Source of the DNA: a virus
DNA length: 64,000 nt
IMG/VR virus record: IMGVR_UViG_3300035169_000077
Coordinates: 1-64,000 of that record
Strand: one strand, 5' to 3'
How positions within the stretch are numbered: the stretch's first letter is position 1; the number at the start of each line of letters is the position of its first letter. The notes under the pieces are model-generated. The model searched no databases. It was not told where the DNA came from and saw only the letters and a list, made by a program, of their open reading frames with translations. This document shows, one piece after another, positions 30,711 through 53,986 of the stretch. The translations under genes and the position numbers were made by a program.

Positions 30711-31439
30711 ATGCCCCCCTCCTGGCAGGCCGCCACCGCAGGCTTCAGCGCCCTGGCCGGCCACGTCAACCAGTTCCTGGCCACTCACGCCGTCACCTAC
30801 GTGTACACGGGGTCGCAGACGGCGGCCCAGTCCACTGCCGGGTCCGGCGGGGTGGCGAGCAACGGCACCTGGATAGCCCAGTCGTTCAGCACGGCAGGCG
30901 GGCAGACGACAACCGGGTACGTGATCGTGACCGCGAAGGTCACCCTCAGCCCGGCCCCGTGGGTGGTCAGCATCCAGGCGAACAGCGCGGGTGCTCCTTC
31001 CGGGACGCCGCTGGTCTCGGCTGCGGTCCCGAAGGAGTTCCTCACCTCGAGCGCGGCTGCGCAGGCGGTCATGCTGCCGGTAACCGGGCTGACCGCGTCC
31101 ACGACGTACTGGATTGTCGCCAATGCCGTGGGCGATGCCAGCAACTTCTTCACCTGGAGCAAGTCCAACCAGGTCACGGGGACCTCTACCAGCACGAACG
31201 GCTCGACGTGGACCCCGCAGGCGTTCGGGATGCTCTACAAGGTCTTCGACGCCACCCCGGTCATGCCGCTGGCCGGCACGTGGGAGGACTCCGCCGCCCG
31301 CTGGACGGCCCTCGGCTACAACGGCTCCGGGGCGCTGACCAGCATCGAGGAGTACACGGCAGGCCAGGCGGCGAACGGCTACACGGCATCCTCCCGCGCC
31401 CTCACCTACGCGAATACCCTGCTGACGGGAGTGGCCTGA
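30711..31439 (+). CDS. minor tail protein
   Basis: IAQSFST, LTASTTYWIV beta-sandwich pattern. Confidence 0.65.
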   Translation: MPPSWQAATAGFSALAGHVNQFLATHAVTYVYTGSQTAAQSTAGSGGVASNGTWIAQSFSTAGGQTTTGYVIVTAKVTLSPAPWVVSIQANSAGAPSGTPLVSAAVPKEFLTSSAAAQAVMLPVTGLTASTTYWIVANAVGDASNFFTWSKSNQVTGTSTSTNGSTWTPQAFGMLYKVFDATPVMPLAGTWEDSAARWTALGYNGSGALTSIEEYTAGQAANGYTASSRALTYANTLLTGVA

Positions 31440-31440
31440 G

Positions 31441-31923
31441 ATGGCGTCGTCGCTTGAGCTGCTGCTCCTCGCGCAGCAGTCGGTAACCGACACGCAGGTC
31501 CTGAACTCCGTCACCCTCGTCAACTCGGCGACCATGGCGACGCTGCTGACGGCCCCGGTAGCGGCCGGGGCCGGCGGGTACTACCTGCGTGCCCTCGTCG
31601 GCGCGGATGCCCTCGCGGCGGCGGGCACCATGCAGATGGAGCTGACCACCGGGGGGTCCGGGGCGGTCGTGTCGCAGGCCGGGTACGGGTTCTATTACCT
31701 CGGCGGGGCCGTCGACCCCGCGACGACGTGGAAGACGACGACCGGGGTCACGTTCAACGGCCCGACGATGGCGGGCAGCGGCACGTTCTACCAGCTCGTC
31801 CTGGAGGGGTGGATCGCCTTCTCCACGGGCGGGTCGCTGTCCCTGCAGGTGGCGACGTCGAACGCGTCGGACACGTGGAACGCCCAGCCGGGATCGCTGT
31901 TCACGCTGCGGCCCCTCCCGTGA
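31441..31923 (+). CDS. minor tail protein
   Basis: Beta-rich; GSLSLQ.A...PGS ending. Confidence 0.6.
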   Translation: MASSLELLLLAQQSVTDTQVLNSVTLVNSATMATLLTAPVAAGAGGYYLRALVGADALAAAGTMQMELTTGGSGAVVSQAGYGFYYLGGAVDPATTWKTTTGVTFNGPTMAGSGTFYQLVLEGWIAFSTGGSLSLQVATSNASDTWNAQPGSLFTLRPLP

Positions 31924-36026: not shown

Positions 36027-36041
36027 GTCAAAAGCATACCA
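36027..36041 (-). promoter_or_regulatory. extended -10 leaderless promoter of the HNH gene
   Basis: TGG-TATGCT followed by 6 nt and then ATG 36026. Confidence 0.65.
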
Positions 36042-37056: not shown

Positions 37057-37212
37057 GCCGGCAAGCCTAGGCGTTGAGAAGCGCGTTCGGACGGCTGCGA
37101 CTGCGGGAAGAAGGCGGCACCGGGTGAGCCTCGCTGACGTCCTGTGGGCCGGTGCCGCTCTCCTGGCCCTCGCGGTCCTGACGGCGGTAGCCGACTGGCT
37201 CCGGGGTGGCCT

Positions 37213-39622: not shown

Positions 39623-39864
39623 CCATCACCCTGGCCCGCCGGGTAGCAGGCCCCGAGGACCTGGAACTACCGGGCGACTACTGCGGGCCGCTCCCTGAGC
39701 TTGAGGGCCCTGACCTCACCCCGTCCGGCAGGACCGCCGTGTGGCTGGTGGCCCCGGACGGGTCACCGGTACGGCTCGCCTCCCCGCCGTGGGAGTTCAC
39801 CGAGGCTGAAGACGGGTCGCTGGAGATCACCGTGGCGGCCGGAACGCCCTCCCCGGCAGCCTGA
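39619..39864 (+). CDS. hypothetical protein, possibly a truncated DUF6527-like paralog
   Basis: PGDY, W...PDG, WEFTE.EDGSL, then no PSI/WHG end. Confidence 0.45.
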   Translation: MTITLARRVAGPEDLELPGDYCGPLPELEGPDLTPSGRTAVWLVAPDGSPVRLASPPWEFTEAEDGSLEITVAAGTPSPAA

Positions 39865-40112
39865 GCCAGGACGATCTCGCGCCCGCAGCAGATGGCGTGA
39901 TCTTGCAGCGGAAGCCGGCCGGAGCGCGTCGACCACCAGCCGCGCGGATGAGTGCCCGCCGTGAACTCGATCCCGCACGCCGCCACCCGCACTTCCCCGC
40001 GAAAGCCGCCGTCGAAGCGGCGCACGATCAGGTGAGCAGATGTCGGCAACGCGGGGCCACCCGGATACATGGGGCTGAGGCCCATCGCCCACAGGTTGGG
40101 ATCGTCGCTCAT
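39678..40112 (-). CDS. hypothetical antisense moron
   Basis: ATG lies 6 nt after TAGGCT. Confidence 0.5.
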   Translation of the reverse strand: MSDDPNLWAMGLSPMYPGGPALPTSAHLIVRRFDGGFRGEVRVAACGIEFTAGTHPRGWWSTRSGRLPLQDHAICCGREIVLAQAAGEGVPAATVISSDPSSASVNSHGGEASRTGDPSGATSHTAVLPDGVRSGPSSSGSGPQ

Positions 40113-40135
40113 CCCGCCAGCCTAGGGCTACCTCG

Positions 40136-40242
40136 CAGGCCGGGCGGGACTTGAACGCCGCTCCTCAGGGCCTGGGCCGCCTCCGCTAGCGCGCTATCGC
40201 TCGGGCGCGGTTACCTGCGCTCTGCCGTTGAGCTACCGGCCT
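40136..40242 (-). ncRNA. tRNA-like RNA with expanded anticodon arm
   Basis: AGGCCGG/CCGGCCT acceptor stem, TA-GCTC-AACGGCA-GAGC D arm, GTTCAAGTC T loop; 44 nt between CAGG and CCTG; TAGGGT 6 nt upstream. Confidence 0.7.
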
Positions 40243-40265
40243 GAGCCGACCCTACCCGGCCGGGG

Positions 40266-40679
40266 CTAGTCGACTAGCTTTCTTGAGGCCTCGCGTCGCC
40301 GCCATTCGCAGCGCCGCAGCGTGTGCTTGCGGAACAGCCGGTCCTCCCAGATGGCCCGCGCCCAGCGCCGCTCTCCCTTAACAGGCGATTCAGGCACGGC
40401 GACCACGTCCGTCCCGCACGACTCGCACCGGCTCGGCCCTTCCCTCTCGCCAGTGCGGATGAGGAACGGCGCGGACTCGGCCAGCGACGCCAGGTCCTCG
40501 GCGACCAGCGGCCCCTTGACGGGGTCAGCCTCCAGTTGCCGGAGCACGGCGGCGTAGTCCACGGCCGGGATGATCCCCTGCTCCAGGCCAGAGCGCAGGA
40601 ACACGCCTCCTGGCGGGGCGTCCGGGTCCACGACGATCTTGAAGCCACTGAAAGCCCAGCCCTCATCCCCGGCGGTCAC
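40266..40679 (-). CDS. hypothetical antisense moron
   Basis: GTG lies 6 nt after TACGTT; CESC...H...C. Confidence 0.55.
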   Translation of the reverse strand: MTAGDEGWAFSGFKIVVDPDAPPGGVFLRSGLEQGIIPAVDYAAVLRQLEADPVKGPLVAEDLASLAESAPFLIRTGEREGPSRCESCGTDVVAVPESPVKGERRWARAIWEDRLFRKHTLRRCEWRRREASRKLVD

Positions 40680-40710
40680 CCGCCCAACGTACCCCGGGAG
40701 GTGACGGCGC

Positions 40711-42093: not shown

Positions 42094-42791
42094 CGATCAG
42101 CTTCCCCGCGACCAGCGGCGACCACAGCGTCACGGCGGAGGCGAATCCGCTGGTGATCGCGCCGCCGGCGAATGTCGCCAACGGCGACTTGCTCGTCGCA
42201 TGGGTCATCGCCAGGACCGGGATCAGCAGCGCGCCGGGCAGCTGGACGGCGCTGCAGTCGTTCACCACCAACGGGACGTTCGCGGCGTACTCGCTGAAGG
42301 TCCCGACCGCGTCGGCGCTGCCCGCTAACTGGACGTGGACCCCGGCGTCGGCGCGGGCGAGCGTGATCATCCAGCGGGTGACCGGCACCGACCTCACCGC
42401 CTCCGTCACCGTCGGCGGGACCTGCGGGGCGGGCACTGACGCCGGGTTCGGGACGACGTACTCGTCATTCCTGCCGATGCAGCTGCCCGGCATCACGCCA
42501 CCGGACGCGTGGGCCGCCTGCGTCGGGACGTTCTTCACCGGGGACGCCAACACTCCCTCGGCGGACCTCGTGCCGGGCGGGACGCTGCTGGCGACGGCGA
42601 CGACCACGAGCGCCGGGGCTGGCCGGTCGTCGTCGGGGATCTACGGCGCTGTCGCGGCCGGGCCGACCGGCACGATCGTGTGCGCGAACGACTGGCCGGG
42701 CGCGCCCGGCGGCCAGGACGGCATCCTGCTCGGCTTCACCGCCGTGCGCGCCCCCGTGAAGAGCGGGCTGCTGATGGCGGGGGTCATATGA
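42090..42791 (+). CDS. fibre-associated beta-sandwich protein
   Basis: P.NV.NGDLLVA, P..WT pattern; coupled. Confidence 0.6.
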   Translation: MTISFPATSGDHSVTAEANPLVIAPPANVANGDLLVAWVIARTGISSAPGSWTALQSFTTNGTFAAYSLKVPTASALPANWTWTPASARASVIIQRVTGTDLTASVTVGGTCGAGTDAGFGTTYSSFLPMQLPGITPPDAWAACVGTFFTGDANTPSADLVPGGTLLATATTTSAGAGRSSSGIYGAVAAGPTGTIVCANDWPGAPGGQDGILLGFTAVRAPVKSGLLMAGVI

Positions 42792-45328
42792 CGAGCCTGT
42801 CGTACGTCACGATCACTGGCCAGTTCACCGGGGGCGGCAACACGCCCCTGTCGGGCAGCGTGACCTTCACGCCGAGTCAGGCTGTCTACGCCGGGGGCGT
42901 CCCCGTCGTCACTCCCGGGGTGCCGATTACCGCCCAGGTGATCGCCGGGCAGCTGTTGTCCGAGCACGGGGGGCCGCTCCGGCTCCTGGCGACCGACAAC
43001 GACGGCCTGACCTTCCTGACCCTGACGGGCTTTTTCTGGTGGTCGGTTGAGGCGGTCATCGGCGGCGTCACTCAGCCGGCGTGGTCTTTCGGCTTGCCTT
43101 CCAGCCCGACAAGCGTCGACTTGTTCGCCCTCGCGAACACGCCCTTCGGTGGAGGCGGCGGCGGCAACCTCCCGCCCGCGATCATCACCTCCAGCGGCCC
43201 CCTTGGCCCTGAGTCAACGGCGATCCTCGCCGCCCCCGGCCTGACCGTCTCGCTGCCCGACGCGACCGCGGCACCGGGCAGGGCGATCACGGTCAAGCTC
43301 GACTCGCCGTTCACCACCGGGACGGTCGAGACGATCAACGGGCAGCTCATCGACGGCTACCCCTCGTACCAGATGGCCGCCCGGTACCAGTGGTGCACGC
43401 TCCAGTCGGACGGGACCAACTGGCAGGTCATCAGCGCCAAGCCCGGCGGCCTCCTGAGCATCCCCGTGCCAGTGCTGCCGGCCGGGACCGCCAACGCGCC
43501 GTACAGCGCCCAGCTCACGGCCAGCGGCGGGTGGCCCGGGTACACGTGGAGCGTCAAGTCAGGGAGCCTGCCCGACGGCGTGACCCTGTCCACCTCAGGC
43601 GCCCTCTCAGGCACCCCGACAGTGGCGACGACCAGCGGCTTTACCGTCCAGGTGACCGACTCGATCGGCTCCATCGCGACGATCGCCCTGACTATCACGG
43701 TCGGCGGGGGCATCGTCCTCGTCCAGCAGGGCGCCGTGATTAACGCCTCGAACGGGGCCTCGGCGGCTCCCGTCTTCCTCAACGCCACCGCGGCCGGGAA
43801 CCTGCTCATCGCCCATGTCGGCGGCAACGGCTCCGGGGCCATCACCACGACCGCTTCCGGCTGGGTTGTCGTCGGCGCCGGCGGCCATGCGATCGCCTAC
43901 AAGGAGAACTGCGGGGCCGGCGAGACGCCTCCCGTCTTCTCTCGCGGCAGCACCAGCGACATGTGGGCGTACCTGGAGGAGTGGACCGGGGCCGCCACCT
44001 CAGGCGCGGCAGACCAGTCCGTGTCATCCTCCGCCGGGTCGTCGGCATGGACAGCGGTATTCCCGGCGCTGAGCACCGTGCCGGGGGAACTGCTGGCCTG
44101 CGCGGGCTACTGGAACGGCAGCAACACGGGCGGCAGCGTCGCGCTGACCAGCTTCCTCGACAACACCGGCGACACGATCACCGGCACGTTCCTCCAGGGC
44201 GGGAATAGCTTCGGCCAGTACTTCGCCGGGGTCTCCGGGGTCGCCGGCCCGACCGGCAGCACGCATGACCAGGTCGGGATGACCCTCAGTGTCTTCGCGG
44301 GCGGCGACGGCACCCTGGTCTCGTTCCAGCCCGGCAACCAGGGGCCGCCCGGGAACCCCGTCGTCACCACCGCGTCCCCGCTGCCATCAGCGTCCACGCT
44401 GCAGCCGTACACGGTGATCCTCGCCGCAGAAGACGGGGTCCCGCCCTACACGTGGTCGATCGCGTCCGGCACGCTCCCGGCAGGCCTCGCGCTCTCCGCG
44501 GACGGCGTCATCTCCGGCTCCCCCGTGACCGCCGCCGTGTACTCGTTCACCGTCCGGGTCACCGACAGCATCAGCGACTCCGGCACCATGCCGCTGGGCC
44601 TCACGGTCGCGCAGACTCCCACCCCGACGTTCGTGACGTCGGCCTTCACGGAGGCCACCGGAAGCCGCAGCCAGCCGTATCCCGGCATAGCCGCCATCAC
44701 CGGGCCCACTCAGGACCCGACCGTCAACAACAACGTGTGGTCGCCGGTGACCGGGACGGCGTCCGAGCTATTCGTGGTCGATCCCACCCGCTTCTGGGTA
44801 GTCGCCAACATGCCACCCGGGAACACTCAGGTGCTGGCATTCCAGAGCAATGACCTGCGGTTCGGCGAGTTGCCGCTCAGCAGCTTCACTAAGGTCGTCA
44901 GCTCGTTCAGCGAGGAAATGAACCCGACTCCCGGCACGCAAGCCTGGGCGGCCTATGACATCTGGCTGAATAACTGGAACAACGAGATCATGATCCATCA
45001 TGATCTCGCCAGGTTCAATCCTTACGACTCCACGCCCCTGGCCAGGGGAATCTCGTTCGGCGGGAGCAACGGCGTGCCAGTCCTGGCCTGGGACCTGCAC
45101 CTTTACGGCACCAGTGAATATGTCTGGCAGCCAGCGAATAACGCGTTCAATATCCAGTCGGGCAGCGTTGACATTTTGCAAATGCTTCAGTGGATGATTG
45201 ACAATGCGTTCCTGCCGGCGGTTAACACCTTCACGGCAGTCGGCTACGGCTGGGAGATGTGCAGCACCGGCGGCCTTGATGAATTCTTCCAGGTGACCGC
45301 TTTCACCCTTGACGCCGAGTACGGCTAA
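42788..45328 (+). CDS. modular fibre protein: anchor domain, two He_PIG Ig domains and a C-terminal GH12-like glycoside hydrolase
   Basis: LP......Y...L.A.GG..PYTWS...G.LP.G..LS..G..SG.P twice; VNNNVW, AAYDIW, NEIMI, SGSVDI, GYGWEM. Confidence 0.8.
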   Translation: MTSLSYVTITGQFTGGGNTPLSGSVTFTPSQAVYAGGVPVVTPGVPITAQVIAGQLLSEHGGPLRLLATDNDGLTFLTLTGFFWWSVEAVIGGVTQPAWSFGLPSSPTSVDLFALANTPFGGGGGGNLPPAIITSSGPLGPESTAILAAPGLTVSLPDATAAPGRAITVKLDSPFTTGTVETINGQLIDGYPSYQMAARYQWCTLQSDGTNWQVISAKPGGLLSIPVPVLPAGTANAPYSAQLTASGGWPGYTWSVKSGSLPDGVTLSTSGALSGTPTVATTSGFTVQVTDSIGSIATIALTITVGGGIVLVQQGAVINASNGASAAPVFLNATAAGNLLIAHVGGNGSGAITTTASGWVVVGAGGHAIAYKENCGAGETPPVFSRGSTSDMWAYLEEWTGAATSGAADQSVSSSAGSSAWTAVFPALSTVPGELLACAGYWNGSNTGGSVALTSFLDNTGDTITGTFLQGGNSFGQYFAGVSGVAGPTGSTHDQVGMTLSVFAGGDGTLVSFQPGNQGPPGNPVVTTASPLPSASTLQPYTVILAAEDGVPPYTWSIASGTLPAGLALSADGVISGSPVTAAVYSFTVRVTDSISDSGTMPLGLTVAQTPTPTFVTSAFTEATGSRSQPYPGIAAITGPTQDPTVNNNVWSPVTGTASELFVVDPTRFWVVANMPPGNTQVLAFQSNDLRFGELPLSSFTKVVSSFSEEMNPTPGTQAWAAYDIWLNNWNNEIMIHHDLARFNPYDSTPLARGISFGGSNGVPVLAWDLHLYGTSEYVWQPANNAFNIQSGSVDILQMLQWMIDNAFLPAVNTFTAVGYGWEMCSTGGLDEFFQVTAFTLDAEYG

Positions 45329-45996: not shown

Positions 45997-47364
45997 TTAT
46001 CCTCGCTCGGCCAGCCAGCGGAGCGCCCCGGCCTCATCCCCGAACTCCCCGGCATCCTGTGCCTCCAGGGCCTCGGCGAGGATGGGCTTGAACGACGGCC
46101 CCGGCTTCATCCCCGCCGCGATCAGGTGGTCCCCGGTCAGCAGTCCCTTCGCGGGGCGTTCCTCAACCTTCAGGTCCCGGCCCAGGTCGAACCACGCGCC
46201 TGCCGTGCTCCACGCGTCCGGGTCGCCGCGCCCCTTCGCGTCGGCCGCGCACACAAGCGCGAGTTCGGTCAGGGTCGCGGGCTCCAGCCTGCGCACCAGC
46301 CGCCGCACCGCCGGCTTCGTCGGCCGCCCGAAGCAGTTCATGTGCTCCCGGATCAGCGGGACGATGCGGGCGATGATGCCCTCAGGGCAGCCGATCGACC
46401 GGAGGAACGCCGTCGCAGGCTCTACGCCGGCCTCCGCGTGGCCATGGGAGGTGATCCGGCCCTCGGTGAGCTGGCTGTGAGTGACCTTGCCGACGTCGTG
46501 CAAGAGCGCGGCGAAGACGATGACCAGCCGGTCTGTTCCGGTCAGGCCCGCCTCATCGGCAAGCCGGGCAGCCTGGTCAGCGGCTAGCCCGGCGTGGGTC
46601 CACACGTCGCCCTCCGGGTGCCATTCGGGGTCCTGCTCGACGCCGTGCATGTACGCGAGTTCGGGGTAGCGCGCGTCCCACCAGGTGTCATGCAGGACCG
46701 CCAGCGCCCGGCTGACGTGCGTGCCGCGCGTGCCGATCTTCTCCCACTCGCCCCAGATGCGCTCGGCCGGCAGTTCCCGGTACGAGCCCAGGAGATCCCG
46801 GCACAAGATGGCCGTCTCGGGGACCATGGTGAAGCCGAACCGGGCCGCGAACTGGACGCCGCGCAGGACGCGCAGCGGGTCCTCGCTGAACGCGTCCGAC
46901 GTGTGGCGCAGGATCCCGGCCCGGATGTCGGCCAGGCCCCCGTGAGGGTCGATCAGCCCCCCCGTTGCCGGGTCGAGCATGATCGCGTTCATCGTGAAGT
47001 CCCGCCGGGCGCTTGCCTGGGCGAAGCTGATGTCCATGTCCGGCGAGACCTCGAAGCCCCGGTGGCCCGCGCTGACCTTCCGCTCGCGGCGGGGGACGTT
47101 GATGTCCAGGTCGGTGTCCCCGGCGCGGACCTTCAGCACGCCGTAGCTCTTGCCGACCTCATCCACGCGGCCTGCGCGGCTGAGGGCTTCCGTCAGCGCG
47201 GCGAACGTCAGGCCGTAGACCTCAACGTCAACGTCCTTGCTCTCGGCCCCGCCCATGAGGGCATCACGCACGAAGCCGCCTACGAGCAGCGGGTGGCCGC
47301 CAGCTTGGCGGATCGCGGCCAGCACTCGCTCAACGTCCGGCGACAGGCGGGGCAGCGTGATCAC
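45997..47364 (-). CDS. cca: CCA-adding enzyme (class II tRNA nucleotidyltransferase) with HD domain
   Basis: VGGFVRD, DVD, RRDFTMNAI, DP.GG..D, EDPLRVLR..QFAARFGF, ERIW.E..K, HPEGDVWTH, LLHDVGK, GHAE.G. Confidence 0.92.
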   Translation of the reverse strand: MITLPRLSPDVERVLAAIRQAGGHPLLVGGFVRDALMGGAESKDVDVEVYGLTFAALTEALSRAGRVDEVGKSYGVLKVRAGDTDLDINVPRRERKVSAGHRGFEVSPDMDISFAQASARRDFTMNAIMLDPATGGLIDPHGGLADIRAGILRHTSDAFSEDPLRVLRGVQFAARFGFTMVPETAILCRDLLGSYRELPAERIWGEWEKIGTRGTHVSRALAVLHDTWWDARYPELAYMHGVEQDPEWHPEGDVWTHAGLAADQAARLADEAGLTGTDRLVIVFAALLHDVGKVTHSQLTEGRITSHGHAEAGVEPATAFLRSIGCPEGIIARIVPLIREHMNCFGRPTKPAVRRLVRRLEPATLTELALVCAADAKGRGDPDAWSTAGAWFDLGRDLKVEERPAKGLLTGDHLIAAGMKPGPSFKPILAEALEAQDAGEFGDEAGALRWLAERG

Positions 47365-48074
47365 GGGCGGTCCCAGTAGGCGCGGCGGACTTCTTGCAGC
47401 CACGCCTCGGCGGCAGCCTCGTCCGGGCGATCCGGGAGCACGCCGGGCTTGTCGAATGCCTCCTCGGCGCGGGCGAGCACGTCCCTCGCCACCTCTACGC
47501 CCCGCGTGGCGACGTCCTCGCCGAACTCACGGCACGCCGCAGCCTGCGCAAGGCTCAGGCGCACGCTCAGCCGGCCGCTGACGTGCAGTGCCGTCCCCTG
47601 GTGGATCAGCCTCCACAGATGGCGGGCGTGCTTCTCGGTACGCTTCCTGGTGTCGGCCGAGAACGACCCGTCACCCCGGTTCTCCAGCCGGCGGAACTGC
47701 TGGGTGGCATACCCGAGGTAGGCGTTCCGGACCGCCGGCCGCGACAGGAGCGACTTGCGGATATCTACCAGCAGGTAACCCTCGCGCGTCGCCGTCTCGT
47801 ACCTGTCAAGCCACAGCAGCTCCGCGACGGTCGGATTGCACTTCAGGAGGAGCGCGGCCAGCTTTCCCGCCTCGTGGTACGTCGCGTCCGGCTTGGTGCT
47901 GACCCGGCTCGCGGCCTTCCCGAGCGGCGGGTGCAGCCCGTGGAACGCCACGGTGGGCGCGGCGTAGCAGCCGATCCGGTCCACGTCGGAGTCCTCGGTC
48001 GCCAGCCCGTATGCCGTTGAGCCGTTGATGCCCGCGAGGAGCACGTTCGGCGGCGGCTTCATCTCAGCGTCCAC
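47361..48074 (-). CDS. RlaP/YcgL-like Pol-beta nucleotidyltransferase
   Basis: GSTAYGLATEDSDVD, E..K...LLLKCNP.V.ELL, Y.GYA..Q, K.ARH..RL. Confidence 0.85.
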   Translation of the reverse strand: MDAEMKPPPNVLLAGINGSTAYGLATEDSDVDRIGCYAAPTVAFHGLHPPLGKAASRVSTKPDATYHEAGKLAALLLKCNPTVAELLWLDRYETATREGYLLVDIRKSLLSRPAVRNAYLGYATQQFRRLENRGDGSFSADTRKRTEKHARHLWRLIHQGTALHVSGRLSVRLSLAQAAACREFGEDVATRGVEVARDVLARAEEAFDKPGVLPDRPDEAAAEAWLQEVRRAYWDRP

Positions 48075-48256
48075 GCTTTCCCCTCTTCCGTCGCGCCCCG
48101 TCCCGCTTCCTGGCATGGTGCCCGGGTCGCGGGGCGGGGCGCACCTCGTTTTAGCCAGGGGCCTAACAGCGGCACTCCCGGTCGGCTAGTCTCCTCCTGC
48201 GTGAGTTGAATGCTCCCGGCCGCGTCCCACGCCACGGCCGGGCGCCTACCAGGCTT

Positions 48257-53870: not shown

Positions 53871-53897
53871 GCGTGAACCGTTAACTGGGCGAATCCG

Positions 53898-53971
53898 TGG
53901 CGCGAGCCGGATTTGAACCGGCGACCTACGGGTTATGAGCCCGCCGAGCTACCGAGCTGCTCCATCGCGCT
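53898..53971 (-). tRNA. initiator tRNA-fMet(CAT), CCA not encoded
   Basis: Full cloverleaf; CTCATAA loop; GGG/CCC anticodon stem; A1xC72 mismatch; A11:U24. Confidence 0.92.
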
Positions 53972-53986
53972 GGGTCAAGCTTAGCG

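Follow-up and report, generated by a model that had tools for sequence, protein, structure and literature searches.

The 107-nt element described here is a tRNA-derived gene in which the acceptor, D and T arms are kept and the anticodon loop is replaced by 44 nt. It is tentatively read as a putative expressed, non-decoding tRNA mimic (probability about 0.4). This reading draws on the flawless tRNA body, the promoter geometry, the recurrence of such a body with varied arms in other phages, the selection acting on the RNA of the phiC31 group and the presence of RlaP and CCA/HD enzymes in the same phage. The alternatives are given with the evidence that bears on them.

Source genome

The window is the whole stretch of 64 kb that was analysed. 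It corresponds to the first part of a high-GC phage genome of 98,687 bp (70.8% G+C; IMG/VR virus record IMGVR_UViG_3300035169_000077, completeness estimate 94%). Genes for an endolysin and tail-fibre-like proteins are present, as are genes for a CCA-adding enzyme with an HD domain, for RlaP and for an integrase-like protein. A single tRNA, tRNA-Met(CAT), was found by default ARAGORN (whole 98.7-kb genome) and by Rfam. Two of its features are of the initiator type, the A1xC72 mismatch and a run of three G-C pairs at the base of the anticodon stem; its gene does not encode the CCA. The CCA and RlaP enzymes, which the preliminary description had named as possible partners of the element, were both located. 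The corresponding features are:

53897..53971, minus strand: tRNA-Met(CAT), initiator-like, called by ARAGORN and Rfam; the only canonical tRNA
45997..47403, minus strand: CCA-adding enzyme with an HD domain
47361..48116, minus strand: RlaP nucleotidyltransferase (PF10127, 66.6 bits)

Architecture of the element

The features of the element are given below in their order along the RNA, after the whole gene. Nucleotide n of the element is at coordinate 40243-n.

40136..40242, minus strand: tRNA-bodied RNA gene, 107 nt (Rfam tRNA 33.5 bits, model positions 1-71)
40236..40242, minus strand: acceptor 5' strand AGGCCGG, paired with 40137-40143 (CCGGCCT), 7/7 Watson-Crick
40219..40233, minus strand: D arm GCTC-AACGGCA-GAGC, with A14, G18 G19 and A21
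40214-40217 with 40166-40169, minus strand: 4-bp CAGG/CCTG stem
40170..40213, minus strand: 44-nt insert in place of the anticodon loop, inside the CAGG/CCTG stem
40144..40161, minus strand: T arm GCGG(C)G-TTCAAGT-CCCGC with one bulged C, according to the Rfam model alignment
40136, minus strand: discriminator G, followed by CGA, so that CCA is not encoded

Direct reading places U8 A9 between the acceptor and the D arm; G26 precedes the CAGG/CCTG stem, and AGGA lies between CCTG and the T arm. The cloverleaf parts announced by the preliminary description (7-bp acceptor, D arm, T arm with a bulged C, discriminator G, no CCA) were recovered by direct reading and by the Rfam alignment. All stem pairs of the body are Watson-Crick (20/20, no mismatch or G-U pair). 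The conserved tertiary bases are kept: U8, A14, G18 G19, A21, G53, T54 T55 C56, A58 and C61. The insert and one bulged base are the only departures from a canonical tRNA. The element begins 23 nt downstream of the stop of one gene and ends 23 nt upstream of the start of the next. Third-position G+C periodicity is absent across the region, which is thus non-coding.

The element could also be a recently disabled tRNA gene, which is possible but less favoured. A 35-44-nt insertion or duplication in the anticodon arm and a 1-nt insertion in the T stem would have inactivated the gene, maybe the last remnant of a tRNA cluster, and promoter and body would survive as the event is young. The lack of an anticodon and the bulged T stem fit this explanation, and the bulge, a defect in a true tRNA, also counts against a mimic. 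The unblemished stems and complete set of tertiary bases argue the other way, since neutral decay would be expected to leave substitutions too, beyond the insert and the bulge; the compactness of the phage genome also argues against a disabled gene. Decay, the null hypothesis of the preliminary description, is thereby weakened but is kept as a rival.

Detection of the element

In a search limited to 131 nt, the Rfam tRNA model (RF00005) aligns over all its 71 positions with 33.5 bits (E 7e-6; gathering cut-off 29 bits). In this alignment, the 44 nt stand locally for nine positions of the loop, and the T stem has one inserted C. The element was missed by default ARAGORN and Rfam runs on 64 kb and on 601 nt, because the insert evidently splits the match and the speed filters drop it. 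Relaxed ARAGORN (-ps90 -i) calls the 107-nt element, but it makes 40 calls in 98.7 kb at that setting, so the call is no proof. A second search used R1, a tRNA-body model built from other tRNA-bodied phage RNAs (the phiC31 group, see below), with filters off. Over the 64 kb it gives two outliers, tRNA-Met (37.1 bits) and the 107-nt element (29.7 bits), and the next match has 15.4 bits. The tRNA likeness of the element is therefore not due to chance.

Promoter geometry

Four -10-like boxes are found at the same distance from the start of a gene or of a mature RNA:

40249..40254, minus strand: TAGGGT, 6 nt upstream of nucleotide 1 of the element
53978-53983, minus strand: TAAGCT, 6 nt upstream of nucleotide 1 of tRNA-Met
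40686-40691, minus strand: TACGTT, 6 nt upstream of the GTG of the 137-aa gene
40119-40124, minus strand: TAGGCT, 6 nt upstream of the ATG of the 144-aa gene

The TAGGGT box and the geometry shared with tRNA-Met had been pointed out in the preliminary description and hold in both respects. TANNNT occurs 160 times on both strands (197 kb), i.e. about 8e-4 per position, and TAGRRT twice in the 98.7-kb genome. Given this rarity and the exact 6-nt spacing, the element is likely transcribed as a unit of its own, its RNA beginning at the mature 5' end. The TAGGGT box would drive this transcription and, with a start at nucleotide 1, there would be no 5' leader to remove. Each of the upstream gene, the element and the downstream gene has its own -10 box, which makes them three consecutive units.

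Genome-wide, 17 ORFs have TANNNT 5-8 nt upstream of their start codon (examples at 40686-40691, 40119-40124, 37064-37069, 36033-36038 and 2741-2746). Judging from these motifs, leaderless transcripts seem to be heavily used by the phage, which also has an initiator-like tRNA-Met of its own.

A cis-acting role in an operon is quite unlikely: the tRNA shape would be either a signal for RNase P/Z cleavage, a 5' stabiliser or an insulator between three close transcription units, and the element would not be a free RNA with a separate function. The 23-nt spacing to the genes on both sides is consistent with such a role. So is the context of two tRNA-bodied genes of other phages (L155 and L156a, see below), where TANNNT likewise comes within 4-8 nt after the gene and is itself separated from an ATG by 6-7 nt. 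No terminator was found after the element, as would suit a cis-acting element. However, each flanking gene is preceded, at leaderless spacing, by a -10 box of its own, which would make processing unneeded, and the box of the element puts the transcript start at nucleotide 1.

The 44-nt insert

Under the cloverleaf constraint, the insert forms an imperfect hairpin with the helices CCGC/GCGG, CCG/CGG and AGCG/CGCT (-43.0 kcal/mol, against -44.2 for the minimum free energy structure). The extended hairpin of the preliminary description can thus form, but its stability is that of shuffled sequence: no excess over shuffles was found for the insert (z -0.33) or for the whole element (z +0.92). The absence of a structural signal in the insert favours a disabled tRNA gene, and folding like shuffles, of both insert and whole RNA, counts against a mimic. 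The apex of the insert carries a perfect palindrome, seen by direct reading and as a self-match to the opposite strand:

40187..40196, minus strand: 10-nt palindrome TAGCGCGCTA, with an estimated probability of about 0.07 by chance

The genome holds no second copy of the insert, and an origin from a mobile repeat was rejected on this ground. An origin by internal duplication was also rejected, the internal repeats being at chance level (equalled in 50/200 shuffles). The lack of a donor copy and of internal repeats above chance speaks against an insertion or duplication that disabled a tRNA gene. The element was also considered as an attP site and rejected as such: the only integrase-like gene is 11 kb distant from it.

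Decoding ability

No 5-bp anticodon stem, 7-nt loop with U33 or readable anticodon was found in the element, either by direct reading or in the Rfam alignment. As the anticodon loop is replaced by 44 nt, the element is unable to decode. About 500 single excisions were scanned; 18 give tRNAs that ARAGORN can call, with 8 different anticodons and none with a canonical loop. The claim of the preliminary description that the element cannot decode is borne out by the missing loop and by the lack of a consistent anticodon among the excision products.

The scan bears on a further explanation, an interrupted but functional tRNA whose extra 35-44 nt would be removed or tolerated to give a decoding tRNA, e.g. 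Trp(CCA). Introns that lack an explanation have been described in phage tRNAs (PMC6784885). The scan itself includes one Trp(CCA) product: once nt 30-64 are excised, a perfect 5-bp stem closes the 7-nt loop GCCCAGG, and the anticodon reads CCA. A1-U72/G73 is the identity set of bacterial tRNA-Trp, which this product would fit. It carries C33, however, against the near-universal U33, and the spread of the 18 callable products over 8 anticodons also tells against a functional tRNA. Compared with 558 phage tRNAs or with the 34 tRNAs of L133 (see below), no ancestral isotype is prominent, and in the former comparison tRNA-Trp is not the closest. Direct reading gives no bulge-helix-bulge motif, with a 3x7 internal loop instead of 3-nt bulges. 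The insert, at only 44 nt, is far below the size of a group I intron, whose core takes at least 200 nt, and no intron family of Rfam matches in the region of the element. An interrupted functional tRNA is accordingly very improbable.

Flanking genes and search for relatives

The element lies between two genes on the same strand:

40266..40679, minus strand: upstream 137-aa gene with a CxxC...HTxRRC motif; GTG start; apparently leaderless
39678..40112, minus strand: downstream 144-aa gene; ATG start; apparently leaderless

The family of the 137-aa protein has invariant C-E-x-C-G and K-H-T-x-R-R-C-E motifs (alignment A2), which suggest a zinc-binding site. The protein has no match in Pfam or PHROG, a comparison with the protein atlas gave no clue, and its AlphaFold model (pLDDT 45) is unusable. 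Three relatives (P0002-P0004; 71-91% identity) are found on short Logan/ENA contigs.

At the DNA level, queries of 1.2 kb and 20 kb gave no relatives in the phage collection, and tblastn with both flanking proteins gave no homologue in cultured phages. No close copy of the element was found in IMG/VR by an exact-pattern scan, and the matches listed there for the insert core and for the D arm plus CCGAGC were unrelated DNA or ordinary tRNAs. With no clear orthologue found in cultured phages or IMG/VR, the element is a singleton. This is what a disabled tRNA gene would predict; it also weighs against a mimic. Nor is the element found beside distant homologues of either flanking gene, another point against a mimic.

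One distant homologue of the 137-aa gene lies on a MAG contig with a phage-like end (locus L133; CAVRGA010000002.1, Actinomycetota), about 400 nt from a 33-tRNA array; the 10-kb locus contains 34 tRNAs including this array (region 5788-9444 of L133). As the window phage has only one tRNA, the adjoining array fits the loss of an array and thus a disabled gene. Near the end of the same contig, two tandem YrlA-like RNAs (L143 1440-1690; Rfam 36.7 and 33.3 bits, cut-off 69) are found about 2 kb from the homologue of the 137-aa gene. This gene keeps company with RNA genes.

tRNA-bodied RNAs in other phages

A tRNA body with a replaced anticodon arm is also found in the phiC31 group, reached by a weak BLAST match. 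The RNA, of 86-89 nt, lies between gp13 and gp14 in phiC31 and at least 11 relatives (copies at loci L003-L010, L021, L035, L053 and L078). It is not annotated in phiC31 and most relatives, and is annotated as tRNA-Gly in Lilbooboo. The phiC31 copy is:

L002 1498-1584, i.e. about 31424-31510 of NC_001978.3

The design is fixed: the 4-bp 'anticodon' stem is combined with a 9-nt strand that contains a 6-nt palindrome, with a hairpin of 3-4 bp capped by a GNRA or UUCG tetraloop, and with YGCAC. Among 12 distinct sequences, 98.4% of the cells are paired and both sides change in 10/26 pairs (0/500 shuffles). The palindrome covaries (CCCGGG, TCCGGA, CCTAGG, CCATGG). This is proof that the RNA of the phiC31 group is under selection, and it provides a precedent for such RNAs. 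A shorter form of 74 nt is found in phiBT1, where ARAGORN calls a tRNA-Thr(cgt) with an odd loop.

A pattern scan gave three further elements in two IMG/VR contigs:

L155: 103 nt, Rfam tRNA 42.7 bits, 44 nt in place of the loop
L156a: 73 nt, Rfam tRNA 43.1 bits, the first 25 nt being nt 2-26 of the 107-nt element
L156c: 98 nt, Rfam tRNA 46.7 bits, including a 12-nt palindrome

The L155 and L156 elements share the GGCCGG acceptor and the D arm of the 107-nt element, with different replacements of the anticodon arm. Their gene contexts are unrelated to that of the element in the window, and the flanking genes have no homology to neighbour genes in phiC31, L155 or L156. The insert resembles that of L155 over 21/27 nt (p about 0.04), a marginal likeness, the phiC31 insert scoring equally; it is counted against the mimic. 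The recurrence of similar bodies with other arm replacements in unrelated phages speaks against a gene that was merely disabled.

L156 is a 103.6-kb phage contig (IMGVR_UViG_3300035117_000094). At L156 6035-6453, the anticodon arms of two tRNA-bodied genes are aberrant, and a third, degenerate gene lies between the two; a repeated ACGYGAAGACCG motif precedes two of the three. The contig also encodes an RlaP (42747-43487) that is 29% identical to that of the window phage. No CCA enzyme of the PolyA_pol type was found on this contig and no portal match between the two phages. RlaP and an aberrant tRNA body thus apparently co-occur a second, independent time; with two phages in all, the small number is a point against the mimic.

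Odd tRNA-like genes are common in phages: the scan of IMG/VR for long D-to-T spacings gave more than 100 with 7/7 acceptor stems. Among these genes (loci L012, L017, L051 and others), many are tRNAs with a UAU anticodon and a long extra arm. Another (L051) is a tRNA with an anticodon stem of about 17 bp and a normal-looking loop, GTTACGA. In Gordonia phage VanLee, an annotated Ro-like gene is closely preceded by unannotated YrlA-like RNAs (L151 667-743 and 832-895; 47 and 33 bits). The tRNA-Arg(tct) annotated between them has 26.9 bits and is overlapped by the second YrlA-like match.

Proposed role and significance

The transcription, processing, CCA addition and decoy role of the element are proposed from its sequence and gene setting. 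The kept half (acceptor stem, T arm, D arm and elbow) would be the part recognised by enzymes that process or modify tRNA ends. The 3' end would be trimmed and CCA-tailed as in a tRNA, either by the host or by the CCA/HD enzyme of the phage. The mimic, which has no anticodon loop and does not decode, would work via its acceptor end and elbow. The likeliest role would be that of a decoy or preferred substrate in a conflict over tRNA 3' ends, also hinted at by the RlaP and CCA/HD pair. The setting also speaks for a mimic, as the sole true tRNA of this phage is accompanied by RlaP and a CCA/HD enzyme.

A broader proposal is doubtful. The element would be a member of a class of stand-alone RNAs of high-GC actinophages that combine a shared tRNA body (GGCCGG acceptor, standard D and T arms) and, in place of the anticodon arm, unrelated and often self-complementary hairpins. 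Such RNAs would act at the tRNA 3' end with RlaP-type enzymes, e.g. as decoys for host toxins that modify or clip acceptor ends.

Phage tRNAs counter host defences that cleave tRNAs. If the mimic reading is true, the retention of only the non-decoding half of a tRNA in a phage RNA would point to the acceptor end as a different battleground. If, instead, the tRNA is dead, the element shows in a clean snapshot how phage tRNA sets are lost. Such genes escape standard annotation pipelines, and an element of this kind is unannotated in the model phage phiC31.

Comparison with known systems

The element differs from each known system in a defining feature: the anticodon loop for tRNAs, the arm order, score and Ro gene for YrlA, the features of tmRNA, and the design of the phiC31 family. 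No published description of such a phage RNA was found by a literature search.

Canonical tRNA (RF00005). The element shares the acceptor, D and T arms, the arm order and the tertiary nucleotides, and scores above the cut-off. Unlike a canonical tRNA, it has neither a 7-nt anticodon loop nor U33, and it carries the 44-nt insert and the bulged T-stem C.

tRNAs with introns. Lak megaphage tRNAs have 'enigmatic' short introns in the anticodon region that belong to no known class (PMC6784885). Their anticodon is recognisable once the insert is removed (PMC6784885), whereas removal gives no consistent anticodon for the element.

tmRNA. The tRNA-like domain of tmRNA shares with the element ends that form an acceptor stem, an intact T arm and a long helix that replaces the anticodon arm. 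The element differs from it by the lack of G3:U70 (it has G3-C70) and of a tag reading frame. ARAGORN, run over the whole genome with its tmRNA option, returned tRNA-Met and no tmRNA.

YrlA (RF02553). A tRNA-like module of acceptor, T and D arms and a long imperfect helix at the place of the anticodon arm are common to both. The modules of actinophage YrlA RNAs (VanLee, L143) have a D arm, a T loop and a GGCCGG/CCGGCC acceptor helix near-identical to those of the element. The two are nevertheless circular permutations: the element has an open acceptor and a closed long helix, whereas YrlA has a closed acceptor and a long helix that bears the ends. Along the element, the parts run acceptor 5', D, helix, T, acceptor 3'; in YrlA, the T arm, the closed acceptor hairpin and the D arm follow each other inside the long terminal helix. 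The YrlA model gives 10.8 bits on the element (cut-off 69), and no match to a Ro/Rsr (TROVE) gene was found in the phage record (94% complete).

phiC31-group RNA. The fixed design of this group (palindrome strand, tetraloop hairpin, YGCAC) is unmatched by the element, where it is skipped as a local end. Membership of the group was rejected, the R1 score of the element (29.7 bits) being below that of a true tRNA-Met (37.1). Both are nonetheless intergenic in high-GC actinophages, and in both a tRNA body is combined with a 4-bp 'anticodon' stem and a replacement that is not an anticodon; the D arm of the copy found in Heather is identical to that of the element.
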